IMG/VR virus record: IMGVR_UViG_3300027852_000041
DNA length: 64,000 nt
From: a virus
Strand: one strand, 5' to 3'
Shown: in pieces, positions 619 through 44,342 of the stretch
Position numbering within the stretch: the stretch's first letter is position 1
Layout of the letters: every line of letters starts with the position of its first letter
The notes under the pieces: model-generated
Seen by the model: only the letters and a program-made list of their open reading frames with translations
What the model was told of the DNA's origin: nothing
Databases searched by the model: none
Program-made: the position numbers and the translations under genes

Positions 619-2427
619 TTAAGCTTTGTTTTGTAATCCTGCATATCTCTCCTTACACCACCAATAATTGTGTCCAACATAAGTATTTAGTTGTCTCGAA
701 GGAACCTTAACCCTATAATGAAGCTGGTCGCTTAACTCCTTCCCAGAATAAGGATTAACTTCTGAATCTCCTATATTTTTGTAATATCCACTATTTAGCC
801 CACCGCATACTTTCTTAATTGAGCATTCCAAACATTTTGGAGCAAAGATATTTGTTCTGTCGGAAAGCCATTTGGAATATTCAAGGTATGGCGAAAATTC
901 TTTAGGCAAAATGCTGTAATCCCACTCATAACCATCATGCATCACTTGAGGAATGTTACAAATATGTTTTTCATATCCTTTCAGCAGGCACATTGGGAAG
1001 TATCGTACATTAACCATAACGCCGGCAGAGGTTAAAATATCAATCGCTTCTTTCAGGTAAAAAGCAATTTGAGAATTTCTCCCCTGAAAATCCTGTTTAT
1101 CAAGATGAGACCATTCATTATAGGGGTTAAAATTAATAAAATTACTGATTAAGGGTTTAACCTTGGCAAAATACTTAGCCAACTCTATTAAATCTTCAAA
1201 ATTACTTGTTAAGACCGTATTAGTTCTGAATTTGAAATTATTACTGTTACATTTTTCTATGGCTTTATTAACTTTTGCGAAACCATTTTTTGTCTTTGTT
1301 ACTTTATTGTGGATATCTTCAGAACCATGAATAGAAAAAAGAATATCTTCAAGCCCGGCATCCCAAAATTCATCTAATTTTGGTTCTATTTTTTGCCCAT
1401 GTGTAATAACACAGGGGAATAATCCCAACTTTCTTGCTCCCCAAAGCCATTTAGCAAAATCAGGGATGATAGTTGGCTCCCCTCCACTAAAATCGCAGAA
1501 ACGATTTCCTCTCGCCACTCCATCAACCAGAACCCTTTCCATTTCTTCCCATGTTAAAAATCTCCTTTCCTTTTTTTCCATGTGAGAATAGTAGCAAAAC
1601 TCACAACTTAGGTCGCATATACGCCCAACATCTGCCTTGAATCGCCTTGTTGGAGGAAGCCGATACGTCCCATGCCATTCCATTTTATTGTTCAAGCAAA
1701 TATCTGCCCCCCTTACCTTCACGGTATTCATTATGGAAGAATACTCAGGTTTTTTGTCTTCGTTCCCTTCAGTCTCACGGTTGTAAACATATAATGGACG
1801 ATTTATAAAACTTATCTTTCTGGCTGTTTCCAACATTGGAAGAAACAAAGCTGAATCCCCGCAAGTTTGCCAATATTTGCCGGTAGAAGGGTCAACAAGA
1901 GTATCTGAAGACACGCTTTTAAACATTTCAGCCCTGAATGTTCTAAAATGAGAATACGCAATTTTAGCGTAACGTGCCGAGGTCGGGTCTTTTAATGGAC
2001 GGGAAACCCCCATTGTTACCATTGGTGTTCCATTCTTTTGCCCGTGATAAGTAACGTGCTGGCTATAAACCATATCAGCGGATGATTTTTTATAAGCAGT
2101 TACAATTTCCTGCAAAGCCTTCGTCCCCAAAAGCCAGTCATCACCATCAAGCCATGACACAATATCGTCATCTTCAAGATTTTCTATTTTTGATATCCCA
2201 TAAAGAAAGGAAGAAAGTGGAGAGCCTGAATTGCTATCCCGCCTATATGCTTCTACGCTTCCATTATGCCTCTGTATCTTCTCCCATGTCCTGTCAGTTG
2301 AAGCATCATCGACAATAATATGCCTCATGTTTATCCCATCGGTATCTTGGTCTTTGACAGACAAAATGCAGGCATTTATATACTTTGAAGCATTATATGT
2401 TGGTGAAACAATATGAAGTTTTTTCAT
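619..2427 (-). CDS. Fusion protein: N-terminal GT2 glycosyltransferase + C-terminal radical-SAM domain with a Cys-rich SPASM/twitch-like tail
   Basis: N-terminal part: HIVSPTYNASKY...IIVDDASTDRT and the DxD motif WLDGDDW. C-terminal part: CDLSCEFC (CxxxCxxC, nt 1594..1617), the SAM-binding FSGGEPT, and a C-terminal CLECSIKKVCGG. The start overlaps the upstream stop (TAATG). Confidence 0.8.
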   Translation of the reverse strand: MKKLHIVSPTYNASKYINACILSVKDQDTDGINMRHIIVDDASTDRTWEKIQRHNGSVEAYRRDSNSGSPLSSFLYGISKIENLEDDDIVSWLDGDDWLLGTKALQEIVTAYKKSSADMVYSQHVTYHGQKNGTPMVTMGVSRPLKDPTSARYAKIAYSHFRTFRAEMFKSVSSDTLVDPSTGKYWQTCGDSALFLPMLETARKISFINRPLYVYNRETEGNEDKKPEYSSIMNTVKVRGADICLNNKMEWHGTYRLPPTRRFKADVGRICDLSCEFCYYSHMEKKERRFLTWEEMERVLVDGVARGNRFCDFSGGEPTIIPDFAKWLWGARKLGLFPCVITHGQKIEPKLDEFWDAGLEDILFSIHGSEDIHNKVTKTKNGFAKVNKAIEKCNSNNFKFRTNTVLTSNFEDLIELAKYFAKVKPLISNFINFNPYNEWSHLDKQDFQGRNSQIAFYLKEAIDILTSAGVMVNVRYFPMCLLKGYEKHICNIPQVMHDGYEWDYSILPKEFSPYLEYSKWLSDRTNIFAPKCLECSIKKVCGGLNSGYYKNIGDSEVNPYSGKELSDQLHYRVKVPSRQLNTYVGHNYWWCKERYAGLQNKA

Positions 2428-3389
2428 TATTCTTCCATCACCGATTTAATTATAGAATCTAACTTTTTTAATTGTTTATTAATCTCATATTGTTCTACCA
2501 GCTTTTTCTTTTTCTTGCTTATCTGTTGTTTTTCTTCATTGCTTAACTTTTCAAACTGTCCAAGCAAATTAACAAAACTGTCTACTCCTGTAAAACTACA
2601 GTCCTTGCCGAACCTTTCTCTTGCCCCGCAAAAATCATGAATCAGCGGTATCAAGCCACTTCCCATGCTTTCTATTATAGAATTGCCAAAAGACTCAAAA
2701 AGAGAAGTAGAAAGATTGTATGATTTATCCTCAAACCAGGCAGGAAGATTTTTATTATCTACCCAGCCTTCAAAAAAAATGGTATCAGATAAATTCATTT
2801 TTTTTATCATATCAGATAAATATAGTTCATATCTGGGGTCTTGAAAACGACCAATAACATGAAATGTGTAATCCATGCCTTTTTTCTTGAGAGCATCTGC
2901 CAAATATAAAATCATCTGGGGATTTTTCTTATAATTAATCCAGCCAATCCATGCTATTTTATTGCCATACTTTTTTTTCTTCCACTTAAATAAATTGAAA
3001 TCAACCCCGTTCGGCAAAATATCCATCGAAGAAAGCGGTATTTTTGATTTTTCTTTTACCTGCTGCATTAATGTTTCTATTTCTTTACTTACGATTAAAA
3101 GCCTATCACAATTCAACCAATAAGTATTCAAAGGAACAGGCGTAAACAGTTCAAAAGAATGAAGCCTGCAAATTACCTTTGACTCTTTGGGATGTCGCAT
3201 TGCTTCCCGGAACATATCATCGCAAAATTCAAACCAGGTCAAATCATTTTTGCGCATCAAAATTCTTATTTGATCCTGGGGGATTAGTTCGTCAATGTAA
3301 AGAACTTCATGCTTCTTCCCAAGATGAGAAACCATGTGCCCATGATGAAAATCAAAAGTTTTGTATCTGTCAAAAATAACTATTTTCAT
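2427..3389 (-). CDS. GT-B fold glycosyltransferase (GT1/GT4-like)
   Basis: C-terminal motif ESFGNSIIESMGSGLIPLI matches the E-x-FG...E-(A/S)-M-x-x-G-x-P signature of GT4 enzymes. RBS GAGGAG lies upstream. Confidence 0.7.
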   Translation of the reverse strand: MKIVIFDRYKTFDFHHGHMVSHLGKKHEVLYIDELIPQDQIRILMRKNDLTWFEFCDDMFREAMRHPKESKVICRLHSFELFTPVPLNTYWLNCDRLLIVSKEIETLMQQVKEKSKIPLSSMDILPNGVDFNLFKWKKKKYGNKIAWIGWINYKKNPQMILYLADALKKKGMDYTFHVIGRFQDPRYELYLSDMIKKMNLSDTIFFEGWVDNKNLPAWFEDKSYNLSTSLFESFGNSIIESMGSGLIPLIHDFCGARERFGKDCSFTGVDSFVNLLGQFEKLSNEEKQQISKKKKKLVEQYEINKQLKKLDSIIKSVMEE

Positions 3390-5158: not shown

Positions 5159-6103
5159 TTAATCTCCCGCGCTACCGTAAACACCAACATAGTCCGGCCA
5201 TCCGCAAGCGAATCTTTCGTAAATGAAATAAAGAAGATTATCGGACAAATCTTCCACCGTCATTTTTGTTCTTGGTTTTTCTCTCCACTGGAACTGAAGA
5301 GGGTATTCTTTCCCCATAGATGCTTTGTCCGCCAACAGATACCAAGCATCCGCATCAACATTCCCCAACCAATACGGCCAAATTATTGACTCGATTTCGG
5401 TTCTTTTTCTGAGAGCGTTAATAGCGTTTTCAGCATTTTCCGGGTATTTGTCGGAATCTAAAAGCTCAGTAGCTTTTTGCTGCAACTGATGGGGGGTTAA
5501 AAGAATTTTGGGCGAGATAGCCTTCGGCAACCCTGCATCGTTCTTGAAGGTATAAAAAGCATTCACCGCAGCCCAAAGACTTGTAGCGGTTAAATCCGCG
5601 TCGGTAGAAGGTTTATTCGATTGAGTATCCCCGTTTTTCATGGCGTGGGAAGTACTGAAAAGATACTCAGTGGCAGACCGATTCCCACTTTGCCAGGCAG
5701 GGAGCGAATCAAAACCTCCGGTAAAAACTGAAGAAGCGTAATATTGTATCGTGGCTTCAGCGGCTTCTCTCATTACCTGCGGAAAACGGGAAATAACACT
5801 GTATCTCTCATCCGCCTGCGCTTCATGAGTGATGGTCATATACACGCCATACGCAATACTCTCAAGGTCGGTGTAATACCCTTCCCCAGGTTCGACGGCA
5901 GAATAATTTGTACCTTCATCCTTTTTTGATAAAAGCGGAACACCCTCGATAGTCATAAATCTTTCATACTGGTACCCGAAAGAAGACACATTGAAAACCT
6001 GATTTATGACGGCGAAAGGATCTGCCTTTTTCCAGGGCGAGAACAAAATCTGGTCAAGCCCGGCTTTCATTAAATTTGCAACATTAGCTCTAATAACAGC
6101 CAT
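5159..6103 (-). CDS. Major capsid protein (HK97-fold candidate)
   Basis: 314 aa. Its position after the scaffold-like gene, its size and its composition are typical of a capsid protein. Strong RBS. Confidence 0.65.
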   Translation of the reverse strand: MAVIRANVANLMKAGLDQILFSPWKKADPFAVINQVFNVSSFGYQYERFMTIEGVPLLSKKDEGTNYSAVEPGEGYYTDLESIAYGVYMTITHEAQADERYSVISRFPQVMREAAEATIQYYASSVFTGGFDSLPAWQSGNRSATEYLFSTSHAMKNGDTQSNKPSTDADLTATSLWAAVNAFYTFKNDAGLPKAISPKILLTPHQLQQKATELLDSDKYPENAENAINALRKRTEIESIIWPYWLGNVDADAWYLLADKASMGKEYPLQFQWREKPRTKMTVEDLSDNLLYFIYERFACGWPDYVGVYGSAGD

Positions 6104-7564: not shown

Positions 7565-7948
7565 CTAAAAATTAGGGTCTTTCGACCAGTGTTGCTTATG
7601 CTTTCTTTTTTTTCTCAACCACCTGACATCACTCATTACGGTATCATATAAATCCTTAATCTCCAGAATCCTTCCTCTGGCTTCCCTGTAGTCTCCCCAA
7701 TCGCTAATAATTTTTTTATCTGTCATTCCCTGAAGGCATAATTCCGCTTTTCTTACCTCTAATGTTTTTATGAAAAATTTTCCAAGGTCAGAATTGAAGA
7801 TAAAATCCTCTAATTTTAACGCTCGTTCTTCTCTCGCGGCTCTATCAAGTTTTCTTTGCAAGTCAGTCAAAGGCTTTTTTATCTTTGATGTTGCCGGCTT
7901 TTGCGTTACCCCACCTTTTTTTTCTTTCATGTCTTTCGCATCTGTCAC
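7565..7948 (-). CDS. Hypothetical late protein
   Basis: 127 aa. GTG start overlaps the portal stop (GTGA). RBS GGGAG. Confidence 0.5.
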   Translation of the reverse strand: MTDAKDMKEKKGGVTQKPATSKIKKPLTDLQRKLDRAAREERALKLEDFIFNSDLGKFFIKTLEVRKAELCLQGMTDKKIISDWGDYREARGRILEIKDLYDTVMSDVRWLRKKRKHKQHWSKDPNF

Positions 7949-9654
7949 GAAGCTTCTCCCTCATTTTGCTGTTTGCTGATTTCTCGCATTATCTCAACGG
8001 CGATGGGCTGTATTTCCTCCGGCAAAGCGGCAACTGGAATCATCGCCTCTCTTTTTTTTACAAAATCTGACGTTTCCTTAAAATCATACAAATTGTCCAT
8101 CATTTTTAAAACATTAGGAAGGTCAAACTGGTATGTGGGATCGTTCTGTAAAATATTGGCTATTTCCCTCAGAAGGTTAGGGAATTGCTGTTGCTTGCTA
8201 TATTTTGAATATTCAGTTTCTACCGCTGTAGCGGCAAAATTAAATTCAATATTTTTAAAAAATCCATCTTCCTTCCCGCGTTTCAGAATATTGAAAGTCT
8301 TTTCTGCCAAAGGCCGCAAAGTTAATCTGTCTGCCTGCTGTATAAATAAGGTAAAAACTTTTTCAGCGGCAGCCATCAAGCCTGTAAATTCTCCCAAAGT
8401 CTCTCTCTTGGATTGCCCTATGCCTACCGTTTCAGCCGTAGCCCTGCTTGTTTTTTCAATTTCTCTGTCAAGAATACTGTGCATATTCCCGAATGCCCCA
8501 AAATTTACTTCCGGGGTGTCAACAATTTTCACATCATCATGATTTTTTAGAAACCAGAGAGAATCCGGCTTACGGATTAAATCATCTTCCGTTAAGTCTG
8601 AGCGTTCCAATACCTGAACAATGTTTGTCAACGACCTTTTATGCTGGTCAAGAAACAAATCGTGATGTTCTTTTTGCTCCACAATAAGAGATTCTACCGC
8701 CTGCAAAGCTCCTTTCCCATAAAAAGAACCGGGAACTATCTGATAAATAGAGGCAATGAAAGGCTTATAATAATTTTTTTCTCCTTCCTCCTCTGTTTCA
8801 AAATAGTTGGTAGAAGGTTCGCATCTGATGATAGTTTCTATTTTGTCTCCATTAAGAACAGCAGTGATAACATATTCTTCCCACACCCTATTCTTAACTT
8901 CAAATTCACCCCACTGTTCTATCAAGTCATATACCGGGGTGCCTGTAGCATCGGCGTTTGCTTCGCTTCCATCACTTTCTTTTGTTATAAAAGCATCTTT
9001 TTGCAAAGTCTTCTTTTTTATTAGTTTGTCTAGGTCGAAATATACGTTTTCCATCCCAGCATAAAGATAACCTGCTTTTTCGGGGTTATCAATTACCGAA
9101 GGCGCCTTCAGCCTAGAAAGTTGAGATATGCTTTTTTGGAATAAATGATAGCAATAACGCATATCATCAATTCTCCCCGGTTTATTACAGGAAGGATCAG
9201 GACCAAAATTTTCAGCTGTTACAAATTCCGTAAAAGGATATAATCCTTTCGGATATATTTTGCAAAAAGATGTTCCTATGTTAGCTGCTTCTTTAAATAA
9301 TTCTACGGCGGTTAAATAAAAGTTTGATTTTCTATCGAGGATATGGGCAAATTCTTTTTGAAGTTTCAGGAGGTCCGTTTGTTCTATGTCCGGGTTTTTT
9401 ATGGTAATCCAGTCCGCAACAGAGAAAATCGCGGCCATTATTCTTGGAGCGATTGTCTCTATAATCTGGTCGCCCTTCGGCATTATCAGGTTAGATTCCC
9501 AATCATGCTCCCTGTCGTCTTGCTGGGAAAGGTACAATTTCCTGTATTTTTCCCAGTCCGTAGATTTTTGTTTTACAAAAGCACTGGAAGCATCAAAGTT
9601 TTCCTGAAGCTGCTTTTTTGCTCTTTCCAGAATTTTTGCAGTTGGTTTTTTCAT
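7945..9654 (-). CDS. Portal protein candidate
   Basis: 569 aa after moving the start to ATG 9654 (RBS GAGG 7 nt upstream). Size and position downstream of the terminase fit a portal. Confidence 0.65.
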   Translation of the reverse strand: MKKPTAKILERAKKQLQENFDASSAFVKQKSTDWEKYRKLYLSQQDDREHDWESNLIMPKGDQIIETIAPRIMAAIFSVADWITIKNPDIEQTDLLKLQKEFAHILDRKSNFYLTAVELFKEAANIGTSFCKIYPKGLYPFTEFVTAENFGPDPSCNKPGRIDDMRYCYHLFQKSISQLSRLKAPSVIDNPEKAGYLYAGMENVYFDLDKLIKKKTLQKDAFITKESDGSEANADATGTPVYDLIEQWGEFEVKNRVWEEYVITAVLNGDKIETIIRCEPSTNYFETEEEGEKNYYKPFIASIYQIVPGSFYGKGALQAVESLIVEQKEHHDLFLDQHKRSLTNIVQVLERSDLTEDDLIRKPDSLWFLKNHDDVKIVDTPEVNFGAFGNMHSILDREIEKTSRATAETVGIGQSKRETLGEFTGLMAAAEKVFTLFIQQADRLTLRPLAEKTFNILKRGKEDGFFKNIEFNFAATAVETEYSKYSKQQQFPNLLREIANILQNDPTYQFDLPNVLKMMDNLYDFKETSDFVKKREAMIPVAALPEEIQPIAVEIMREISKQQNEGEAS

Positions 9655-9700
9655 TTGTTGCCTCAAAATATTGGTAAAACTACTTCTAACCAATTAAGAA

Positions 9701-9758
9701 GAGCGGAGGCGAGAAGACTGCCCCGCTCACTATGACGATATTAGTCTCTCGATATTAT
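9701..9758 (+). promoter_or_regulatory. Hairpin + ATATTA(T) box element, copy A
   Basis: Stem GAGCGG (9701..9706) / CCGCTC (9723..9728), inner GGC/GCC pairs and a purine-rich loop GAGAAGA. CGATATTA follows at 9736..9743 and CGATATTAT at 9750..9758. It lies upstream of plus-strand gene 9784. Confidence 0.5.
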
Positions 9759-9783
9759 CAACCTTAAACAAAAGGAGATTATT

Positions 9784-9987
9784 ATGCCCAACAAACCAAG
9801 AAAATTCATTCGGTATCAAGTCCGCAATAAAAGAAAAATCGTACATGGCGGAATTACCGAAAGAACTATAGAAGAACGATTGGGTGAACACCAACAAAAA
9901 TGGCCTGGCGCTACAATAACGCAAGTTGGGCCAAAAGTTACAGAAGAAACCGCCCGTAAATGGGAAAAGGATAAAGGCTATTCCTAA
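9784..9987 (+). CDS. Small GIY-YIG-like protein (possible free-standing nuclease remnant)
   Basis: 67 aa. Strong RBS AAAGGAG. The pattern IRYQV...KIVHGGITERTIEERLGEH resembles the GIY...YIG...R..EH layout. It is on the opposite strand to all flanking late genes. Confidence 0.4.
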   Translation: MPNKPRKFIRYQVRNKRKIVHGGITERTIEERLGEHQQKWPGATITQVGPKVTEETARKWEKDKGYS

Positions 9988-10172
9988 TCTTTCATAGGCA
10001 TAGCTGTACCATCAAATTTGCCAGTTTCTTTTTCAAAATAATATTCCCGTTTATTAATCGCTAATTTTGTAAAAAACGGGGATACGGATATTTCTATCTT
10101 GTTTCCTGTAACTAAATCTTTGTACTCAAAAGGTTGAATTATTGCTTTTTCCATAACTTCCATTATTTGCAT
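9984..10172 (-). CDS. Hypothetical protein
   Basis: 62-aa ORF. The start codon is uncertain (three in-frame ATGs, weak RBS). Confidence 0.35.
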   Translation of the reverse strand: MQIMEVMEKAIIQPFEYKDLVTGNKIEISVSPFFTKLAINKREYYFEKETGKFDGTAMPMKD

Positions 10173-10345
10173 GAAATATTGATTTTAATCAAGCGTTCAA
10201 CTTGGCGCAAAAAGGGATCGCACCGCTCAGTTAAATCGTTAAGGGAACCAAAATTGTCAAAAAAATTAAAAGTAATGCTTAAAAAAATATCTATTTTTAA
10301 TAAAGGAAACAGAATTTTAATGGAAAAACTCAAAGACACTTAGCC

Positions 10346-10543
10346 TCAATCTGTATCGTCATGGGCATCCAATATTACCTCCATACACTCTTCATCATAT
10401 TCCCAAATTAAAGGACTACCATGAATGTCTTCGTGTCCCACAATAAAACCATGTTTTTTAGACACGGATGCAATCTCTTCAAGAAAAGCATCAATTTTTT
10501 TATTTTCTACTTTCTTTGTAAATTTAGCATTCCATCTTTCCAT
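10346..10543 (-). CDS. Hypothetical acidic protein
   Basis: Start moved to MERWNAKF because AGGAGGAATTTTTATG precedes it. 65 aa. Confidence 0.55.
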   Translation of the reverse strand: MERWNAKFTKKVENKKIDAFLEEIASVSKKHGFIVGHEDIHGSPLIWEYDEECMEVILDAHDDTD

Positions 10544-10568
10544 AAAAATTCCTCCTAACAAATCACTG

Positions 10569-10613
10569 GAGAGGACGGCGAGAGGCCGCCGCCTCTCAGT
10601 TCTGCGATATTAT
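10569..10613 (+). promoter_or_regulatory. Hairpin + ATATTAT box element, copy B
   Basis: Stem GAGAGG (10569..10574) / CCTCTC (10592..10597). The loop ACGGCGAGAGGCCGCCG is nearly identical to the copy A loop. CGATATTAT at 10605..10613. A second GAGAGG at 10580..10585 offers an alternative left arm. Confidence 0.5.
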
Positions 10614-10628
10614 GAGTAGTATATTAAA

Positions 10629-10860
10629 TAATTTGCCGCAACCCCCTTTATTTTCTCGGCTAATATCGTTCTAACAGCGACGATTTTTTGTCGGGATAGG
10701 AGGTGAGCCACATGGCAAAGAAAGTCAAAAAGACCTATCAAATAGGTCGTGACGCTGGCACTGGCAGATTTATCCCTGTTGCAGTTGCCAAGCGTCGCAA
10801 GAAAACTGCTGTCGTTGAAACTGTTCAACGATAGCTACACTTTAGGGTTGCGGCAAATTA
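10629..10860. repeat. 16-bp perfect inverted repeat pair flanking a small opposite-strand gene
   Basis: TAATTTGCCGCAACCC at 10629..10644 and its reverse complement GGGTTGCGGCAAATTA at 10845..10860. Confidence 0.8.
10712..10834 (+). CDS. 40-aa highly basic protein
   Basis: MAKKVKKTYQIGRDAGTGRFIPVAVAKRRKKTAVVETVQR. RBS GGAGGTGA 6 nt upstream. It is too short for the ORF track and lies on the opposite strand to its neighbours. Confidence 0.55.
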   Translation: MAKKVKKTYQIGRDAGTGRFIPVAVAKRRKKTAVVETVQR

Positions 10861-10872
10861 ACTAAATAGGTA

Positions 10873-11070
10873 TTAACTAAAAGCTACCTTAACTTTTGCT
10901 GCTGCCTCGTATGTCTTTCTAGTAACTTTCTTTTCAGCCAAAAGGAGTAATACCCGTGCCTCTTTTATTGACAATCCATTAACTATTTTAATAATGTCAT
11001 CTATCTTGTCTTTATTTTGGCCTGCTGCCTGTTTTGCAAAATCATCATTTAAGAGAACCATAGGGTACAT
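10873..11070 (-). CDS. Hypothetical protein
   Basis: 65 aa. RBS AAAGGAAA. Confidence 0.5.
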   Translation of the reverse strand: MYPMVLLNDDFAKQAAGQNKDKIDDIIKIVNGLSIKEARVLLLLAEKKVTRKTYEAAAKVKVAFS

Positions 11071-11450: not shown

Positions 11451-11542
11451 TACCGTTTCCTTTAGCTTTTTGCGTTACTTATACAAGAATAGACGCACAT
11501 AATTTAAAAATAGTCGCCACTTCTCAGTTTAATGCTAAAGCA

Positions 11543-11585
11543 AAAGTGACAAAACTTGCCATTAAATGCAGTAAATTGTCACTTT
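11543..11585 (-). terminator. 10-bp hairpin downstream of the large terminase gene
   Basis: AAAGTGACAA (11543..11552) / TTGTCACTTT (11576..11585) with a 23-nt loop. There is no clean U-tract. Confidence 0.25.
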
Positions 11586-11628
11586 AATTTTAAATTGCAC
11601 ATATAAAAAAGAATGTCAAGACTTATTT

Positions 11629-13284
11629 TCATCTACCGGCAAATTTATTTAAAGGTGGACGGGCAAAATCTCTCTTTTTCCTCTTTACACATTCATATGC
11701 ACGCTCTTCCCTTGTAGCATAGATAGACCATCCGAGAGAATAAATTGAATCATCATGGTATTTAGTTTTTACCTCCGTATGCTCGGAACGCAGCTTGTTA
11801 TATTTCCCCGGATGCCCGAACTTAGGCAAAGAATTTAAGTCACCCTTCACTGTTTGCTCAAAATCATCAAATTCTTTCCTCAGAAAAGTTCTTCCTTCTT
11901 TGTCTTCCTCATCAACCATCAGCCCGTCAGGGATAACAAGCCTTCCTTTGTGAATCTGGTATAAATCGGTGAACATCGGAATCTGGCGATTATCAGTAGC
12001 ATGGATAAGTTCTGCCTCCATCCCCATGTCTTCAGCCCACTGGCATAAATCAGCAGCCTGGTAAACCTCAAAAACAGTATTGTCTATGCGATATTTTTTA
12101 AAATCTTCAAATATAACTTTTTTTAGACTATATTCGCCGTCTAACCCCTGTAAAAAAACAACTTGGTTCAAGATAATATAAAAAGGAAGAGGGGCGTCGA
12201 ATCCAGTCAACCATCCTTTAGCTGTAACAGTCCAAACACTCCTGTCCCCTTTTTTACTGTAAGGCAAAGACCTGTCAAGCCCGCCACCGATAATAAACTT
12301 TGTCTTAAAATCATGCTCAAGTGTTTTTATCTCTTCCTTCCCAATAGGAATCTCAAGGGTTTTCCCAACGGCAAAACATTCATCCAGATGTTCCTGCCCG
12401 AATAACTTACCCCCGGCGCCAATCCAGATATTACGATGGAAGGCATTATAGTCAGGCCCGGTAAGCTGTTTTTCCCTGCTGCTAAGCCAGGCCCTGGAAA
12501 TTAAAGGAGAGATATTATACTTAACATACTCTTTCGGCTTTTCAACTTTATCGGCAAGATAAACAAAAAATATCCGCTCATCTACCGGCGTTTCCCCTTC
12601 AATTTGAATCAGCTTCCCCGAACTTTTATCATGCTCATAAACAGGAGAACCGGCCAATTCCCACAGCTTATAAAAAATATTGGACTTGGGAGAAACCTGA
12701 GACGGCAAAATAATCTGTCCGTCCCTGTCACCCGTCTGGGAAGCAAGAACCTGATACAGCCCCTCCCCGTCAGGGGCAGCATGAATCTCGTCGACAACGG
12801 CAATATCAATAGGATACCCCCAGGAAGAAGCCTTCTCGCTCGAGACTACAACAACCTTGGACTGAGTATCAAGATTTCTTATCTCTTTATCAAGAATATT
12901 CTGTTCCCCAATCATCTCAAATAATTCAGGAGAATTCAAAATTATCTTCTTGATACTGTCAAAAGCTGTAGAAGCTGACTGTTCCCTGGAGTTTGAAGCA
13001 ATAACACTTTCAACATTATAAAACATCGAAAAGTTCCAGGCTCCCAATATCGCTGCCATAAAAGTCTTGGAGTTCCTTTTGGGCAAACCGAAACAGGCAA
13101 CGGTATATTTGTGGCATCTCTCCCCGTCAATTTCAATCATCTCGGTAGCTTCCCTCAACATCCACTTCTGGGAAGTCCAGGGGGATATCTTCTCTATCTT
13201 CCTCCGAACCGGGAAAAATACCAGGTCATTCACCCACCACACAATGTCCTTCTGGTACAACTCTATCTGTTTTTGTGTAAGCAT
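11629..13284 (-). CDS. terL: Terminase large subunit
   Basis: 551 aa. Walker-B-like VVDEIHAAPDGEGLY and an N-terminal P-loop-like GLPKRNSKTF. Size and a nuclease-length C-terminal half are typical. Confidence 0.8.
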   Translation of the reverse strand: MLTQKQIELYQKDIVWWVNDLVFFPVRRKIEKISPWTSQKWMLREATEMIEIDGERCHKYTVACFGLPKRNSKTFMAAILGAWNFSMFYNVESVIASNSREQSASTAFDSIKKIILNSPELFEMIGEQNILDKEIRNLDTQSKVVVVSSEKASSWGYPIDIAVVDEIHAAPDGEGLYQVLASQTGDRDGQIILPSQVSPKSNIFYKLWELAGSPVYEHDKSSGKLIQIEGETPVDERIFFVYLADKVEKPKEYVKYNISPLISRAWLSSREKQLTGPDYNAFHRNIWIGAGGKLFGQEHLDECFAVGKTLEIPIGKEEIKTLEHDFKTKFIIGGGLDRSLPYSKKGDRSVWTVTAKGWLTGFDAPLPFYIILNQVVFLQGLDGEYSLKKVIFEDFKKYRIDNTVFEVYQAADLCQWAEDMGMEAELIHATDNRQIPMFTDLYQIHKGRLVIPDGLMVDEEDKEGRTFLRKEFDDFEQTVKGDLNSLPKFGHPGKYNKLRSEHTEVKTKYHDDSIYSLGWSIYATREERAYECVKRKKRDFARPPLNKFAGR

Positions 13285-17861: not shown

Positions 17862-17891
17862 TTGACAATATTGAATAGCTCAAGATATAAT
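17862..17891 (+). promoter_or_regulatory. Consensus sigma70-type promoter (early, rightward)
   Basis: TTGACA at 17862..17867, 18-nt spacer, TATAAT at 17886..17891. It points into the plus-strand gene block. Confidence 0.65.
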
Positions 17892-29063: not shown

Positions 29064-29102
29064 TTAATGCCCCGCTTGGAAGAGTGGGGGCGTTAATATT
29101 AT
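29064..29102 (+). promoter_or_regulatory. Hairpin + AATATTAT box element, divergent copy D
   Basis: TTAATGCCCC (29064..29073) pairs with GGGGCGTTAA (29087..29096), including one G-U pair. The loop contains GGAAGAG. AATATTAT at 29095..29102. It lies 17 nt upstream of ATG 29119. Confidence 0.4.
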
Positions 29103-30391: not shown

Positions 30392-30419
30392 TTGACATTC
30401 TGTAATTAACTGTTATAAT
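30392..30419 (+). promoter_or_regulatory. Consensus sigma70-type promoter with extended -10
   Basis: TTGACA at 30392..30397, 16-nt spacer ending in TGT, TATAAT at 30414..30419. It lies upstream of the replication module. Confidence 0.7.
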
Positions 30420-32944: not shown

Positions 32945-33128
32945 CAAAAGGTTATCAGGAGTCCCTTTATGACTGAAAACGAGTTTGACAGATGCTTCGA
33001 AAAATTATGCAAACGTTGGGGTAAGAAATTCAATGAAGGCCAAGCGGAAATTTACTAATGGCAGAAACAGCAAAAGTAATCCTACTTAAAGGGAATCAAG
33101 GGGCTTAGGCTACCATAACAAATCGTCA

Positions 33129-33169
33129 AAGCGGACGGGGGAAGATTCCACCGCTTAACTTAATATTAT
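33129..33169 (+). promoter_or_regulatory. Hairpin + AATATTAT box element, copy C
   Basis: Stem AAGCGG (33129..33134) / CCGCTT (33151..33156). The loop ACGGGGGAAGATTCCA is homologous to the loops of copies A and B. AATATTAT at 33162..33169. Confidence 0.5.
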
Positions 33170-33175
33170 AAAAAT

Positions 33176-33331
33176 ATGATAGAAAAATTATACATAAAAC
33201 AAAGGCTGGTTTTAGACGATTTGGTTTTAGATATTGGCGATATTGTCGATGGAATAAAAGTTAGACCAGACACATATAAGGTTTTTGTAAGAAATGGTTG
33301 GTGGGCAGTCCCATCAAATTATTTTTTATAA
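33176..33331 (+). CDS. 51-aa hypothetical protein
   Basis: Own translation MIEKLYIKQRLVLDDLVLDIGDIVDGIKVRPDTYKVFVRNGWWAVPSNYFL. No recognisable RBS. Confidence 0.3.
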   Translation: MIEKLYIKQRLVLDDLVLDIGDIVDGIKVRPDTYKVFVRNGWWAVPSNYFL

Positions 33332-33350: not shown

Positions 33351-33581
33351 ATGCACTACAAAGAAACACAATACGGATTTGAATGGGGAGACGCAAAAGT
33401 TACCCGGATAGCCTCAGATGAAAAAAATAAGTGGGTAATGTTGGGTATTAAATCATCAAAATATTCAAAACATGGTCTCCAGATTTACGTGACGAAAACT
33501 GGGAAAATAAGAATCCACTCAAATGGGGTAGAGTGGTTTCCTTGTGAGAAGAAGCGGACGGGGAAGGGCTCTGTTGGGTAG
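33351..33581 (+). CDS. Hypothetical protein
   Basis: 76 aa. RBS AGGAGG. Confidence 0.55.
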   Translation: MHYKETQYGFEWGDAKVTRIASDEKNKWVMLGIKSSKYSKHGLQIYVTKTGKIRIHSNGVEWFPCEKKRTGKGSVG

Positions 33582-33589
33582 TTTAAACA

Positions 33590-33691
33590 TTATGCCACTT
33601 TGCGCGGGGTGTCGTGAAAAGTCGGTCACAAGCGGGTCGCACCCGATCATGAGGGGGATGACGTCCTTCCGCCCCGTCCAAAGTGGCATAA
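33590..33691 (+). ncRNA. GC-rich structured element R1 (candidate ncRNA or long hairpin)
   Basis: 13-bp perfect closing stem TTATGCCACTTTG (33590..33602) / CAAAGTGGCATAA (33679..33691), extended by GCGGGG/CCCCGT pairing. It is visibly more GC-rich than its surroundings. TTTAAACATTA immediately precedes it. Confidence 0.4.
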
Positions 33692-33734
33692 CAAGCAAGC
33701 TCGTTTTGATGATTAACCACTATAAGGAGGAATT

Positions 33735-34782: not shown

Positions 34783-35043
34783 ATGGAACAGGCGGTGCAA
34801 AGAATAAGAAAGTTGGTCAGAACTCATAAGGGAAGAAAGCCGACAGTAGAGAAAAACACTTTTGACCAGGGGGTTGATGCTGGGCTAATACTGGCACGGC
34901 AGGCTCTTTTAACTGCAAAATTCGCCTCCAAACAAGGCGTTGAAGCTGACGGGTCTCAAGCATGGGAATATTGTAAAAACTTTATTTCAAGTATTTTGTC
35001 ATATTTTCGTAAGGTGTGCGGGCGAAAGTTGCCTACAGCTTAA
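34783..35043 (+). CDS. Hypothetical protein
   Basis: 86 aa. RBS AGGAGG. Confidence 0.5.
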   Translation: MEQAVQRIRKLVRTHKGRKPTVEKNTFDQGVDAGLILARQALLTAKFASKQGVEADGSQAWEYCKNFISSILSYFRKVCGRKLPTA

Positions 35044-35085
35044 CTAAGACGTTATGAATAATCAAACGGGAGGAGGGTTGTTGAG

Positions 35086-38320: not shown

Positions 38321-38629
38321 ATGAGTAAGTTTAAAATATCAGTAATTGATTTTATCCCCGAAACCGGAAGGCATCCTATTGGTGAGGTCGATTCAAACGG
38401 TGAAGCCATCACGGTTGGTGATATCGTTACCCTGAATGGTGAAAAACATATGGTCGCTTATCGGTACGGTGACTTTGTACTCAAACAGCCGATGACCATG
38501 CACACCCTTGGTATTTCAGATTGGTCTAAAACAACGAAACTAAACGAAATATGGTCAACGCCAGACAATATAGCATGTGGCGATATATCGGAAGCTTTTT
38601 ATAATAGGGTTAAGCATTTGTGTGTATAA
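38321..38629 (+). CDS. Hypothetical protein
   Basis: 102 aa from ATG 38321 (RBS GAGGAGG). Confidence 0.5.
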   Translation: MSKFKISVIDFIPETGRHPIGEVDSNGEAITVGDIVTLNGEKHMVAYRYGDFVLKQPMTMHTLGISDWSKTTKLNEIWSTPDNIACGDISEAFYNRVKHLCV

Positions 38630-38662
38630 CCAGTAATTCCAGCCTTCCCAAACCACGGGCGG

Positions 38663-38677
38663 CTGATTTAACCATTA
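38663..38677 (+). repeat. 15-mer CTGATTTAACCATTA, copy 1
   Basis: Identical copies at 39499..39513 and 40743..40757. Copies 1 and 2 share about 28 further upstream nt (ATTCCAgCC..CC.AAA..CACGG.CGG). Confidence 0.8.
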
Positions 38678-38690
38678 GGAGGAAAATATA

Positions 38691-39066: not shown

Positions 39067-39465
39067 ATGAGGCATCAAGATAAAATCAACTGGATGATTC
39101 AGTGGGCGCACAAAAATAAGTTGCGTCTTGAGCTTGAAGGTGAGTGTGGGTTTGGACGTGAATGTGTCGGAGTTGTCGCAGATACGGTTGGATACCCGGA
39201 TTATGAGTGGTCGGACGACAAAACATGGGAACGCCTCGATGAGAATGGAGAGGTTTGGACACCAGAAGACGCTTACCACAAACACCCCTGCGTTGCGGTT
39301 CTTGGCCGTGGGGTTGATGTGGAGGGGCAGCTTTACGATTGGCTCAAGTGGTTCGAAGCTAATAACTTCGTGGTCGAAACCGGGCAAACCAAAAAGAAGA
39401 ACCTTAATTCAATACATATTATGCTTGGAAAACACAGATATGCCAGAATGGTTAAACAGGCATAA
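39067..39465 (+). CDS. Hypothetical protein
   Basis: 132 aa. RBS AGGAGG. Confidence 0.55.
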   Translation: MRHQDKINWMIQWAHKNKLRLELEGECGFGRECVGVVADTVGYPDYEWSDDKTWERLDENGEVWTPEDAYHKHPCVAVLGRGVDVEGQLYDWLKWFEANNFVVETGQTKKKNLNSIHIMLGKHRYARMVKQA

Positions 39466-39498
39466 CAAATCATTCCATCCGACCGAAAAGCACGGCGG

Positions 39499-39513
39499 CT
39501 GATTTAACCATTA
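39499..39513 (+). repeat. 15-mer CTGATTTAACCATTA, copy 2
   Basis: Directly abuts structured element R2. Confidence 0.8.
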
Positions 39514-39663
39514 TGCGCCAGAAAGAGAAAGATGCTTGCCAGCAACCCCACTGTGCAGGGGAGACCATGACCTTTACCGAACCGGATGGCGCCGGTAGAT
39601 GATGAATATCGCAAAGTAAAGGTGGGCGTTTGAAGCCCTTAAAATCGGGTGCAGTGGCGCATA
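39512..39663 (+). ncRNA. GC-rich structured element R2 (candidate ncRNA)
   Basis: Closing stem TATGCGCCA (39512..39520) / TGGCGCATA (39655..39663). Internal hairpins CCCC-ACTGTGCA-GGGG, CCGG-ATGGCG-CCGG and GGGC-GTTTGAA-GCCC. No ORF longer than 12 codons. A weak AGCTA/TAGCT + TTTTT hairpin follows. Confidence 0.4.
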
Positions 39664-39704
39664 GCTAACAAATAATAGCTTTTTATTAAAGAAAGGAGCC
39701 TACC

Positions 39705-39936: not shown

Positions 39937-40419
39937 ATGGATTTAGAGTATGCCCGGCACATTTCAAGAAGCGGGATGGAAACAGCGGCTTTTGTAGCAG
40001 AAAGCAACAAAATTGAGGGAATTTTAAGGGATCCTACCATGGAAGAAATCAAAGAACATGATCGTTTTATCAGCCTTCGAGTTATTAAATTGGGAGACTT
40101 AAAGAAATTTGTAAAAATTTGCCAACCCGGCGCTGTCCTTCGAGACAAGTTTGGGATGAATGTGCGTGTCGGTAATTACACTCCCCCAGCAGGGAATCCC
40201 AACATGGGCAAACTTGTATCAAAGTTGCTCAGTACCGCAGGGCTTAAAACTCCCTTTGAATTGCATAATGAGTACGAAACACTGCATCCCTTCACGGACG
40301 GAAACGGGAGAAGCGGCAGGGCTTTGTGGGCATGGAGGATGATGAGAACCGAAGGCAATTATAGCCTTGGGTTTCTGCATTCGTTTTATTATCAAGCTTT
40401 GGAGGCATGGAGGAAATAG
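39937..40419 (+). CDS. fic: Fic-domain protein (minimal, 160 aa)
   Basis: Canonical HPFTDGNGRSGR (nt 40285..40320) fits HxFx(D/E)GNGRxxR. The N-terminal SNKIEG (nt 40003..40020) fits the (S/T)xxxE(G/N) inhibitory-helix motif. Confidence 0.85.
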   Translation: MDLEYARHISRSGMETAAFVAESNKIEGILRDPTMEEIKEHDRFISLRVIKLGDLKKFVKICQPGAVLRDKFGMNVRVGNYTPPAGNPNMGKLVSKLLSTAGLKTPFELHNEYETLHPFTDGNGRSGRALWAWRMMRTEGNYSLGFLHSFYYQALEAWRK

Positions 40420-40467: not shown

Positions 40468-40746
40468 ATGGATGCTCAGGACAGAATAGCACAAGTAAAA
40501 GGGTTGGCAAAAAGTGACAAGGAAGCAATTACCATGTTGCTGTCTTCCTGCGCTGATATGGGAAGCGCAAATGGGGTATTGTTAAGCGTCTCCAAGTTTG
40601 ATGAAGCCGCAGAACTTATCCTTGGTTATTTTTCACAAAGCCACATAATACCCAATATAGGCGACGGTGCCAAAGAGCCTTTGGATTGTAAAGGGATAGA
40701 GATAGGTGGAAACACAATTGCCGGGAAGATTGTACCCCGTACCTGA
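40468..40746 (+). CDS. Hypothetical protein
   Basis: 92 aa from ATG 40468. Its TGA stop is part of 15-mer copy 3. Confidence 0.45.
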   Translation: MDAQDRIAQVKGLAKSDKEAITMLLSSCADMGSANGVLLSVSKFDEAAELILGYFSQSHIIPNIGDGAKEPLDCKGIEIGGNTIAGKIVPRT

Positions 40747-40757
40747 TTTAACCATTA
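40743..40757 (+). repeat. 15-mer CTGATTTAACCATTA, copy 3
   Basis: Identical to copies 1 and 2. Confidence 0.8.
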
Positions 40758-40781
40758 ATTTTTTACAAAAAGGAGAACTCC

Positions 40782-43102: not shown

Positions 43103-43333
43103 ATGTCAAGCACATTAAATCCAAGCGAAGCTGTTTATGGTTTTGCAGCATGGTTAACGACCCGGAGTGAAAAAACGGTAATGTCTGCCTCGAATGATGC
43201 AGCACCAATTGCTGACCTTGTAAAGCAATTTTGTGAAACAAACTCTTTGCCGGAGATATCGGAACATTGGCCAGATAATTTAATACATCCAACTGGTGAA
43301 GTGGCAGTGCCGGAAATTGTGCATAACCAATAA
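43103..43333 (+). CDS. Hypothetical protein
   Basis: 76 aa from ATG 43103 (RBS AAGGAG). Confidence 0.5.
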   Translation: MSSTLNPSEAVYGFAAWLTTRSEKTVMSASNDAAPIADLVKQFCETNSLPEISEHWPDNLIHPTGEVAVPEIVHNQ

Positions 43334-43396
43334 ATGCACTGGACGGCAAACAGCCGCCGCCCGTGATTAAAGACGATAACGCTTGGAGGTAAAACA

Positions 43397-44305: not shown

Positions 44306-44342
44306 GGCTTGCTACCTACAGAGCATACGTAGGTAGCAAGCC
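44306..44342. terminator. 14-bp perfect hairpin at the convergent junction of the early and late blocks
   Basis: GGCTTGCTACCTAC (44306..44319) / GTAGGTAGCAAGCC (44329..44342) with a 9-nt loop. Confidence 0.6.

Follow-up and report, generated by a model that had tools for sequence, protein, structure and literature searches.

Integron attC-type recombination sites as the probable identity of a hairpin family in an uncultivated phage genome

The window analysed here, a 64,000-nucleotide stretch of an uncultivated phage genome of about 66 kb (IMG/VR record IMGVR_UViG_3300027852_000041), carries a family of short hairpins, all on the plus strand. The candidate sites they form fall into a three-site cluster in antisense orientation between the genes for terminase and portal, and an early-region series from 33 to 43 kb whose members share one orientation. 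In the list below, which includes neighbouring genes, the parts of each copy are named after those of an integron attC site, their predicted identity; the box is an ATATTAT-like motif 3' of the hairpin, and an arrow marks the predicted crossover point.

9684..9758, + strand: copy A, a degenerate putative attC-type site; R'' TTCTAAC at 9684-9690; L box and variable loop form the hairpin at 9701-9728; unpaired A at 9707; G at 9738, then ATATTAG (9739-9745) at the R' position; second CGATATTAT at 9750-9758.
9784..10172: cassette cargo, a 67-aa GIY-YIG-like gene (9784-9987, + strand) and a convergent 62-aa gene (9984-10172, - strand).
10181..10248, + strand: copy H, probably the decayed attC of the 67/62-aa cassette; R'' TTTTAAT, R' GTTAAGG; includes the CACCGCTCAGTTAAATCG singled out in the initial annotation.
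10346..10543, - strand: 65-aa gene in the H-B interval, running opposite to the attC-type sites, with a GGAGG ribosome-binding site.
10551..10619, + strand: copy B, the best candidate attC-type site; R'' CCTAAC at 10554-10559, spacer AAATC, L'' ACT[G]GAGAGG, unpaired A at 10575, variable loop, L' CCTCTCAGT, spacer, G at 10606, then ATA+TTATGAG (box at 10607-13).
10712..10834, + strand: 40-aa basic ORF 3' of B with a ribosome-binding site, flanked by a perfect 15-nt inverted repeat (10630-10644 / 10845-10859).
29064..29102, + strand: copy D, a hairpin directly 3' of a stop codon, then GTTAATATTAT; box present, attC body absent.
33111..33175, + strand: copy C, a putative attC-type site about 180 nt 3' of the Mom-family gene; R'' CATAAC; A-ATA-TTATAA at the R' position.
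34925..35061, + strand: copy K, a long (137-nt) putative attC-type site; canonical L'' GTTGAAGCTG-A-CGGG, L' CAGCTTAAC, spacer TAAGAC, R' GTTATGA.
38622..38684, + strand: copy G, a degenerate paralogue of F; R'' GTATAAC holds the stop codon of the upstream gene; ATTAGGAGG at the R' position overlaps the next ribosome-binding site.
39458..39520, + strand: copy F, a putative attC-type site; R'' contains the stop codon of a 132-aa gene; R box closes (GCATAA/TTATGC); A replaces G at the crossover position.
40744..40760, + strand: fragment J, a third F/G-type 3' end (TGATTTAACCATTA), read directly, just 5' of the gene at 40782.
43319..43383, + strand: copy I, a putative attC-type site 3' of an 83-aa ORF; R'' GCATAAC; G↓ATAACG at the R' position.

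The stems of copies A, B and C lie where the initial annotation had placed them: GAGCGG..CCGCTC at 9701-9728, GAGAGG..CCTCTC at 10569-10597 and AAGCGG..CCGCTT at 33129-33156. The compensatory changes claimed for their outer stems are present, with both sides altered in two of the six pairs and no pair broken, and the folding check proposed at the time gives z-scores of -4.3 (A), -3.0 (B), -1.7 (C) and -3.3 (D). A leave-one-out profile built from B, C and a relative's copy of B recovers A at E 0.005; judged by this profile, the likeness of the three is not a chance match and marks a single paralogous family. Their subtype sequence is ..GGACGGCGAGA.., and the conserved unit includes some 15 nt on the 5' side of the hairpin (CTAAC(A/C)AAT..); a MAFFT alignment in which A is off by one base gives a misleadingly poor consensus fold. 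The degenerate relative reported near 10240 is real, being the 3' half of the further copy H (10181-10248), and the family extends to F, G, I, K and fragment J, all on the + strand.

Boxes of the form ATATTA(T/G) are found beside hairpins A, B, C and D, as had been described (A, ATATTAG and, at 9752-9758, ATATTAT; B, 10607-10613; C, 33163-33169; D, 29096-29102). The hairpin can occur without the box: it is absent in F, G, I and K, and in a relative, contig L148, a B hairpin of 96% identity has a different sequence after the G. Across the window ATATTAT is only mildly enriched, with 24 occurrences observed versus 14.6 expected. For C, the claim that every element precedes a plus-strand gene is weak: the 51-aa ORF at 33176 is not called on the near-identical contig L165 and is probably no gene.

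On sequence grounds, and with a probability of about 0.8, the hairpin family is one of integron attC-type recombination sites, once known as '59-base elements'. Read 5' to 3', the copies show the attC layout: R'' (..TAAC) is separated by a 5-nt spacer from the L box, in which two bases stay unpaired at a distance of 7 nt; the variable loop comes next, then L', and a second spacer leads to R'. The outer stem of the initial description would be the inner portion of the L box, and the conserved unpaired A between the tiers would be the second extrahelical base, which the bottom strand carries as T. The variable terminal structure would comprise the inner tier and the purine-rich loop, the CTAAC(A/C)AAT about 10 nt 5' of the hairpin would represent R'' and the central spacer, and the (CG)ATATTA(T) box would occupy the position of the R' core, which reads G↓TTRRRY in canonical sites.

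In B, C, F, I and all seeds of the covariance model introduced below, L'' has one unpaired base followed, 7 nt on in the top arm, by an invariant unpaired A, and this second unpaired A is present in copy A too; attCaadA7 has the same 7-nt extrahelical spacing (G16/T23; PMC5027507). The spacers measure 5 nt (AAATC) and 5-6 nt, the loops vary in sequence and length, and the sites are 63-69 nt (B, C, F, I) or 137 nt (K) long, against an attC range of about 57-141 bp. R'' ends in ..TAAC in A, B, C, F, G and I, and in ..AAAC in K. What counts against the attC reading is the GTT triplet, said to be the sole sequence conserved in all attC sites, which at R' is present only in K, H and D and is non-canonical in the six copies A, B, C, F, G and I. 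An ATA intervenes between the conserved G and TTA in A and B (G-ATA-TTA), while C has A-ATA-TTA, F and G have ATTA, and I has G↓AT. In minimum-energy DNA folds the R box is closed for F only, on both strands, and open in A, B, C and I. No consistent bias towards bottom-strand stability is seen, the two strands lying within +/-0.8 kcal/mol of each other except in F (bottom -9.5 versus top -7.3), and the loops are purine-rich on the top strand, opposite to the trend in attC sites of mobile integrons; bottom-strand stability and purine richness are a statistical trend of those sites, not a strict criterion (PMC5027507).

Covariance model R1 was seeded with the aadA1 attC of plasmid R100 and nine elements from other viral contigs, the window sequence being excluded. 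The aadA1 query, which recurs at 100% identity in more than 1,900 plasmids and in R100 lies directly 3' of aadA1, next to intI1, aligns column for column with the nine viral-contig elements, and TAAC, the unpaired A and GTT are among the invariant columns. On this seed alignment the attC structure is 90% paired with both sides changed in ten pairs, a result matched by 0 of 500 shuffles, and controls with the structure slid along are 29-47% paired. In the window, R1 matches five copies, on the + strand only, at E-values (4e-9 to 3e-3) that are rough: B (42.8 bits, E 4e-9), F (36.7 bits, E 2e-7), C (34.1 bits, E 1e-6), I (29.4 bits, E 2e-5) and K (22.1 bits, E 0.0026), the last matched on L165 as well. 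Copies G (13.3 bits, E 0.66), A (13.2 bits, E 0.72, hairpin part only) and H (10.5 bits only, E 4) are matched weakly. In a background of 754 kb, comprising contigs of 80 unrelated phages retrieved via Mom, nothing exceeds a best match of 16.6 bits (E 0.95). Five window sites resemble an experimentally used attC by way of R1, a narrow model that on the dfrA1-aadA1 array finds the aadA1 site only and misses the dfrA1 attC. A motif derived from B and C served to fetch nine of its ten seeds, which makes the scores of these two copies partly circular; the matches to F, I and K and the aadA1 row are free of this. Copy D, proposed as a divergent fourth copy, does share the hairpin and the box, but R1 gives no match to it at E<=10, and its membership in the attC family is unproven. 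The tally for the phage is five significant and about five decayed predicted sites.

The covariation check suggested in the initial annotation is borne out twice, by both-sided pair changes in the R1 seed alignment and in the copies of the window, L148 and the metagenome contig L086. In the latter set, the helix of L box and variable loop is 92% paired with both sides changed in 10 of 13 pairs, and the R box is 69% paired. Selection of the structure, as first claimed, is upheld by the compensatory changes, although the structure they point to is a folded single-stranded DNA substrate of an integron integrase and not an RNA.

The proposal that the elements are boundaries of imported gene cassettes was essentially right, since homology with other genomes breaks at them. 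The 67/62-aa gene pair is 87% identical in nucleotides over 452 nt to L086:789-1238, where the pair lies between two attC matches; the homology begins about 7 nt past the R' G and stops in the next R''. Copy A has been aligned with an L086 attC, and by alignment H is the positional equivalent of L086 attC2, a site that scores 34.7 bits. Contig L148, with a terminase 95% identical, has B at 96% identity with different genes on both sides, and the common segment is exactly CTAAC...G. In L001, the closest full relative, the content of the terminase-portal interval is entirely different. Searches for relatives via DnaC-like and SMC-like proteins returned nothing, or one 30% relative only.

Among the genes at these sites, the 67-aa protein has 70 homologues and a weak GIY-YIG match; a genome scan with it returned only homologues of <=63% identity, from diverse phyla, and no hairpin lies upstream of the gene in the more distant metagenome homologues inspected (L084, L085). 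The 65-aa gene has no family match. The Mom-family gene upstream of C is a Pfam assignment, and a Fic/DOC gene lies downstream of another site. The 132-aa gene was considered as a classical cassette with site F and rejected, as it is common in other phages, where GCATAAC forms its end and no attC follows.

In integrons, the bottom strand of a single-stranded attC site folds, and the integron integrase binds the R and L boxes and reads the extrahelical bases. Cleavage falls between the A and C of AAC on the bottom strand, equivalent to G↓TT on the top, and the partner for the cassette exchange that follows can be attI, a further attC or a GWT site in the genome (PMC5027507). One seed element of R1 lies inside a complete integron (contig L151), in which the integrase (TIGR02249, 280 bits, cut-off 265) is divergent from five co-oriented R1 matches, evidence that applies to the family and not to the window itself; contig L150 has four R1 matches within 1.6 kb. 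A scan of the larger window ORFs, and of the genes in the roughly 2.3 kb beyond the window, detected neither an integron integrase nor any other tyrosine recombinase; the arrangement of a complete integron, intI with attI and Pc beside the array, is not seen. The phage may have picked up, or may exchange, small accessory genes as attC-tagged cassettes. As no integron integrase was detected in it, recombination would need a host enzyme in trans, and because most R' cores are altered, many of the sites are probably decaying relics or junctions with secondary sites; many may be fossils. Homologous recombination between similar attC sites may contribute to the shuffling.

Phage-specific promoters, as first suggested, do not appear to be the primary nature of the elements, since a -35 is lacking, a sigma-70 scan is silent at all copies, and the box lies in the R' core and is missing from the L148 copy of B. 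A box function in addition to, or instead of, attC is an alternative of low probability, in which ATATTAT (TATTAT, 5/6 of TATAAT) would be the -10 element of the + strand cassette genes, as a primary or second job, with the ATA insertion or G-to-A change in R' selected by the phage lineage. The + strand genes behind A and B are antisense in the late operon and would need their own promoter, and the box-to-ATG spacing implies short leaders, of 26 nt for A and 16 nt for D, with C leaderless. In A, moreover, the R' position and a second site 12 nt 3' both read CGATATTA(G/T), where the homologous L086 cassette has GTTAAAA and AATAACG, a hint of motif convergence. However, no copy has a TG extension or the -35/-10 pair at 16-18 nt spacing of the sigma-70/PeSL criterion, even though perfect consensus TTGACA/TATAAT promoters (N16/18) are present elsewhere in the phage (17862-17891, 17923-17894 and 30392-30419). 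The box is also palindrome-like, the - strand reading NATAAT equally well, so that strand and function are ambiguous; four copies are without it, it is missing at B in L148, and C has probably no gene to serve. N4-type hairpin promoters were rejected, the 2294-aa and other large proteins having given no match to a phage-encoded RNA polymerase, as was a minus-strand arrangement (NATAAT -10, then a 5'-UTR hairpin), which suits A and B but not the early-region copies.

Somewhat less probable again is a combination of the two, in which host integron integrases would actively use the genome as a substrate. Recombination of the attC x attG (GWT) type would have dropped single cassettes at many places, and the lineage would later have reshaped the resulting hybrid R' junctions (G↓AT...) into ATATTAT -10 boxes, through which promoterless cassettes are expressed even against the late operon. 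If true, this would be natural evidence for a genome-wide insertion route so far laboratory-only, and for phage domestication of attC as promoters.

The other suggestion of the initial annotation, RNA processing or stability elements, fares poorly. A role in 3'-end stabilisation, weak termination, RNA processing or translational control of the following gene is improbable for the hairpins, even though the early-region sites lie directly 3' of stop codons and few nt 5' of the next ribosome-binding site, and D folds far better on the + strand through G-U pairs (-17.7 vs -9.8 kcal/mol). Known attC sites may themselves be weak terminators (PMC9892861), which could be a side effect of genuine attC. 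A T-tract is absent after the hairpins, though the genome has canonical intrinsic terminators, and the hairpins match no Rfam family: in an Rfam 15 scan the sole gathering-score match is a tRNA, with none at E<=1 in 9600-10900. Although the surrounding operon runs in the opposite direction to copies A, H and B, these three share their strand with the early-region copies, and an RNA role leaves the unpaired bases, the spacers and the R''/R' covariation unexplained.

It is very improbable that the elements are PeSL-like 'mobile regulatory cassettes' or selfish palindromes (REP/MITE type), with gene shuffling by homologous recombination and no relation to integrons. They do form short conserved intergenic islands between variable genes in a hyperplastic region, a pattern like that of PeSLs in T4-type phages (PMC2839356, PMC4122927), but a PeSL combines a terminator stem-loop with a sigma-70 early promoter, neither of which is present here, and the family aligns to a verified attC and has one member in an integrase-linked array. 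Lambda nut/boxB-like sites (the loops contain GAAGA) were discarded, A, H and B being antisense to transcription and the loops varying in relatives, as were RNase E/RNase III and IHF sites in GATTTGTTA, resemblances with no consistent strand logic.

The attC reading would explain the repeat family without a new regulatory system. It suggests exchange between phages and cassette arrays at the level of cassettes, with breakpoints at the attC core, and would support phages as both vehicles and users of integron cassettes; a host lineage carrying an integron would be implied. Candidate cargo includes the Mom-family DNA-modification gene upstream of one site, the small GIY-YIG-like gene, and the Fic/DOC gene downstream of another. 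In practice, GC-rich intergenic phage hairpins without a T-tract should be checked against attC models before they are labelled as promoters, terminators or RNAs.

Compared with known systems, the elements share with the PeSLs of T4-type phages a short conserved intergenic motif that borders shuffled small ORFs; PeSLs recombine by homology, whereas the window elements lack the terminator tail and the -35, and their motif is that of attC. Insertion of cassettes by integron integrases at secondary sites (attG, 5'-GWT-3') is described in bioRxiv 10.1101/2022.09.11.507474. Recombination of attC x attG would leave attC...G↓WT plus target at the right junction, and A and B (G↓ATATT..) and I (G↓ATAAC..) fit GWT, whereas C, F and G are without the G and L148 reads G↓TAA; secondary-site insertion at A, B and I is a lead only.

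The closest single site is the aadA1 attC of R100, from a class 1 integron. It has the same order and spacing of parts as the window sites (R''-TAAC, 5-nt spacer, GTT[C]AAGC.G[A]CG.., loop, ..GCTTAAC, 6-nt spacer, GTTA...), a 5' arm with two unpaired bases spaced by 7 nt, and a length of about 60 nt. It differs in its closing R box, its GTT crossover triplet and its pyrimidine-rich top-strand loop, and in belonging to an integrase-linked array driven by the cassette promoter Pc.

As an assemblage, the sites resemble the attC clusters without an integron integrase (CALIN, defined in PMC4889954) that Qi et al. 2023 (PMC9892861) described in phage genomes, being attC-type sites in a phage without intI. 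As in CALIN, they lie on one strand less than 4 kb apart: by R1 scoring C-K spans 1.8 kb and F-I 3.8 kb on the + strand, with a continuous C-K-G-F-I series if the weak G is counted, and A-H-B fall within 0.9 kb. The window differs from the genomes of PMC9892861 in that its sites were predicted by a home-made narrow model and not by IntegronFinder, occupy two genome modules and mostly deviate from the canonical R' core. In that study, activity with IntI1 was seen for five of six phage sites; those of the window are candidates. As in some of those phages, several ORFs lie between sites, some of them inverted, and the cargo includes a DNA-modification gene, of the Mom family here and methyltransferases there. 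With attC clusters in phages already described in 2023, the present phage would add to the 21 phages then reported with integron components.

The hairpins A, B and C and their ATATTA(T/G) boxes lie exactly where the initial annotation placed them, and their outer stems covary as it described, with two both-side changes and no broken pairs. Folding is better than that of shuffled sequence for each of them and for a fourth copy, D, at 29064-29102 (z = -4.3 for A, -3.0 for B, -1.7 for C and -3.3 for D), and A is recovered at E 0.005 by a profile of B, C and a relative's copy of B. The exact sequence TAACAAATC, 4-5 nt 5′ of the hairpin, is common to B and C, while A carries TAACCAATT at the equivalent position. 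The plus-strand genes said to follow A and B are present (67 aa after A; a 40-aa ORF with a ribosome-binding site after B), and A and B are also each located just upstream of a minus-strand gene start. The proposed hairpin family is thus real, but it is larger, and its elements longer, than had been described; the "degenerate relative" near 10240 is the 3′ half of copy H.

Copies of the element in the window
9684-9758, plus strand, copy A
10181-10248, plus strand, copy H, between A and B
10551-10619, plus strand, copy B
33111-33175, plus strand, copy C
34925-35061, plus strand, copy K, early region
38622-38684, plus strand, copy G, early region
39458-39520, plus strand, copy F, early region
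~40744-40760, plus strand, fragment J, 3′ part only, early region
43319-43383, plus strand, copy I, early region

The further early-region copies (F, G, I, K and J) come after stop codons. For the octamer TAAC(A/C)AAT, the whole window gives 12 occurrences, all of them on the plus strand; only 5 of the 12 are inside recognised attC-type copies.

The pattern TAACAAATC-N5-AG-N-GGACGG, derived from B and C, retrieved nine viral contigs whose elements have a common 3′ motif, ..CCGCT.-AAyTCArrC-GTTA(G/T), the last bases of which covary with a 5′ (C/A)TAAC. This covarying layout is the architecture of an integron attC site, and the viral elements resemble the aadA1 "59-base element". The 60-mer of that element has 100% identical copies in over 1,900 plasmids and is located in R100 directly after aadA1 and beside intI1; the viral elements match it position by position in the alignment. 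When the published attC structure, consisting of an R box, a 5-nt spacer, an L box with two unpaired bases and a variable loop (PMC5027507), is imposed on the alignment, 90% of cells pair and 10 pairs are changed on both sides; none of 500 shuffles reaches the same level, and slid controls pair at 29-47%.

R1, a covariance model trained on these ten sequences with window sequence excluded, matches F (36.7 bits, E 2e-7), I (29.4 bits, E 2e-5) and K (22.1 bits, E 0.003) on the plus strand, and also B (42.8 bits, E 4e-9) and C (34.1 bits, E 1e-6), whose scores are partly circular since the B/C motif served to retrieve nine of the ten seeds. That motif had no part in the aadA1 row, nor in F, I and K. 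Matches to G, H and the hairpin of A are weak, and the minus strand of the window has no significant match. Unrelated phage contigs totalling 754 kb score at most 16.6 bits; R1 is narrow, missing the dfrA1 attC, and its E-values are rough. One seed element belongs to a complete integron (L151), in which the integron integrase (TIGR02249, 280 bits, cut-off 265) is divergent from five co-oriented R1 matches, while another contig, L150, has four matches within 1.6 kb.

On the attC structure, the outer stem of the initial annotation corresponds to the inner L box, its invariant unpaired A between tiers to the second extrahelical base, its inner tier and loop to the variable terminal structure, and its "ATATTAT box" to the R′ position. 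In the R1 alignment R′ reads ..GCG-(ATA)-TTATGAG in B and G-(ATA)-TTAG in A, in each case the canonical G and TTA(K) separated by ATA. The other R′ positions are A-ATA-TTAT in C, ATTA(K) in F and G, and G|ATAAC in I; GTT is retained in K, H and D. Across the copies in the window and in contigs L148 and L086, pairing reaches 92% in the helix of the L box and loop and 69% in the R box. When folded as DNA, F is the only window copy whose R box closes; the aadA1 site closes fully. Site bodies are thus well preserved, and crossover cores for the most part are not. As a lead only, the G|AT at A, B and I fits GWT, the consensus for secondary (attG) insertion sites.

The window is nearly the entire genome of a phage, near-identical contigs extending to 66 kb, and no DNA-level resemblance to any GenBank phage was found. 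Minus-strand genes, at 1-17.8 kb and 44.3-64 kb, form a block that holds the structural and packaging genes, while the plus-strand genes are early genes.

Main genes of the two blocks
5159-6103, minus strand, Mu-like capsid, late block
7945-9693, minus strand, portal, late block
11629-13284, minus strand, large terminase, late block
17.9-44.3 kb, plus strand, early genes: YqaJ exonuclease, O-like and DnaC-like replication proteins, dCTP deaminase, Mom family, Fic/DOC

The structural block carries at its end (619-3389, minus strand) genes for a 602-aa glycosyltransferase/radical-SAM fusion and for a further glycosyltransferase of 320 aa, an unusual cargo for a phage of such size.

Comparison with relatives reveals precise breakpoints. 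The closest long relative, L001, has a terminase 91% identical and a completely different set of genes between terminase and portal, and no copy of A or B was found in it. L148 (terminase 95% identical) carries hairpin B at 96% identity with different genes on both sides; the homology covers 52 nt, beginning precisely at CTAAC (10555) and stopping at the G of 10606, and TAATTTTC takes the place of ATATTAT. Metagenome contig L086 has a counterpart, 87% identical, of the 67-aa gene and its convergent 62-aa neighbour, with a similar hairpin element on each side of the pair; since both elements match R1, the pair is a cassette. The 67-aa GIY-YIG-like protein (9784-9987) belongs to a very widespread family of 64-69 aa (70 metagenome homologues, 59 loci in genomes of many phyla), with invariant residues including Y11, HGGIT at 21-25, R32 and E35. 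The Fic/DOC-domain gene (39937-40419) is 74% identical to L001:8325-8768, which adjoins the terminase region in opposite orientation relative to the structural genes, which makes the gene a mobile module in this phage group.

An altered R′ co-opted as a -10 element seems unlikely, even though the antisense cassette genes need a promoter and the L086 cassette is unrelated in sequence at the positions of two CGATATTA(G/T) motifs in A. The copies have no -35 and no promoter-scan match, and the box is missing from the L148 copy of B. The box reads TATTAT on the plus strand and NATAAT on the minus, almost a palindrome, so the strand of any promoter function is ambiguous. No RNA polymerase gene of the phage was found, and it evidently depends on the host polymerase. 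Textbook sigma-70 promoters occur back-to-back at the strand switch (17862-17891, plus; 17923-17894, minus), with perfect or near-perfect consensus, and another at 30392-30419, with a TG extension, precedes the replication genes. PeSL-type promoter-terminator cassettes (PMC2839356, PMC4122927) behave similarly in evolution, but their defining features are absent at these copies. Against an RNA element, the copies match no Rfam family and lack a T-tract, and the strand logic is wrong for A, H and B. Canonical T-tract terminators do exist in the genome, and a perfect 15-bp hairpin at 44306-44342, exactly at the convergent early/late junction, is probably a bidirectional terminator.

Several other stretches are structured or repeated. 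About 100 nt of non-coding sequence at 33550-33700 (plus strand), between two small genes, is strongly structured (-64.6 kcal/mol, z -3.8 for the 161-nt segment 33540-33700) and has no Rfam match; its 5′ flank, AAGCGGACGGGGAAGG, is a repeat of the 5′ arm of C able to base-pair with CCTTCCGCCCCGTCC ~110 nt downstream, and CATAAC follows at ~33686. A long, rearranged attC is one possible explanation of this stretch, an unrelated RNA another. A highly structured non-coding stretch of ~185 nt (39520-39704, plus strand) separates F from the 76-aa and Fic/DOC genes, segment 39460-39710 folding at -62 kcal/mol. The 40-aa basic ORF downstream of B is flanked by a perfect 15-nt inverted repeat (10630-10644 / 10845-10859; AATTTGCCGCAACCC / GGGTTGCGGCAAATT), resembling those that would end a tiny insertion. 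Another short inverted repeat, AAGTGACAAA..TTGTCACTT, located immediately upstream of where the terminase gene starts (11542-11588, plus strand), has a weak R1 score (14.5 bits); given its conservation in L001 and L148, it may serve the packaging operon as a regulatory site.

No tyrosine-recombinase match was found among the larger window ORFs scanned, and the ~2.3 kb of genome outside the window holds adaptor-like structural genes. By the rule of sites within 4 kb on the same strand (PMC4889954), the early-region sites constitute a CALIN, an attC cluster without an integron integrase. A, H and B are a second cluster, mostly decayed and antisense to the late operon. Phage attC clusters and even complete integrons were reported in 2023, with 17 CALINs across 21 phages, and IntI1 recombined five of the six phage sites tested (PMC9892861). 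The present genome is another case of an attC-bearing phage, the phage itself being novel; its distinctive features are the many dispersed candidate sites, the cassette-precise breakpoints relative to its relatives and the systematically altered R′ cores.
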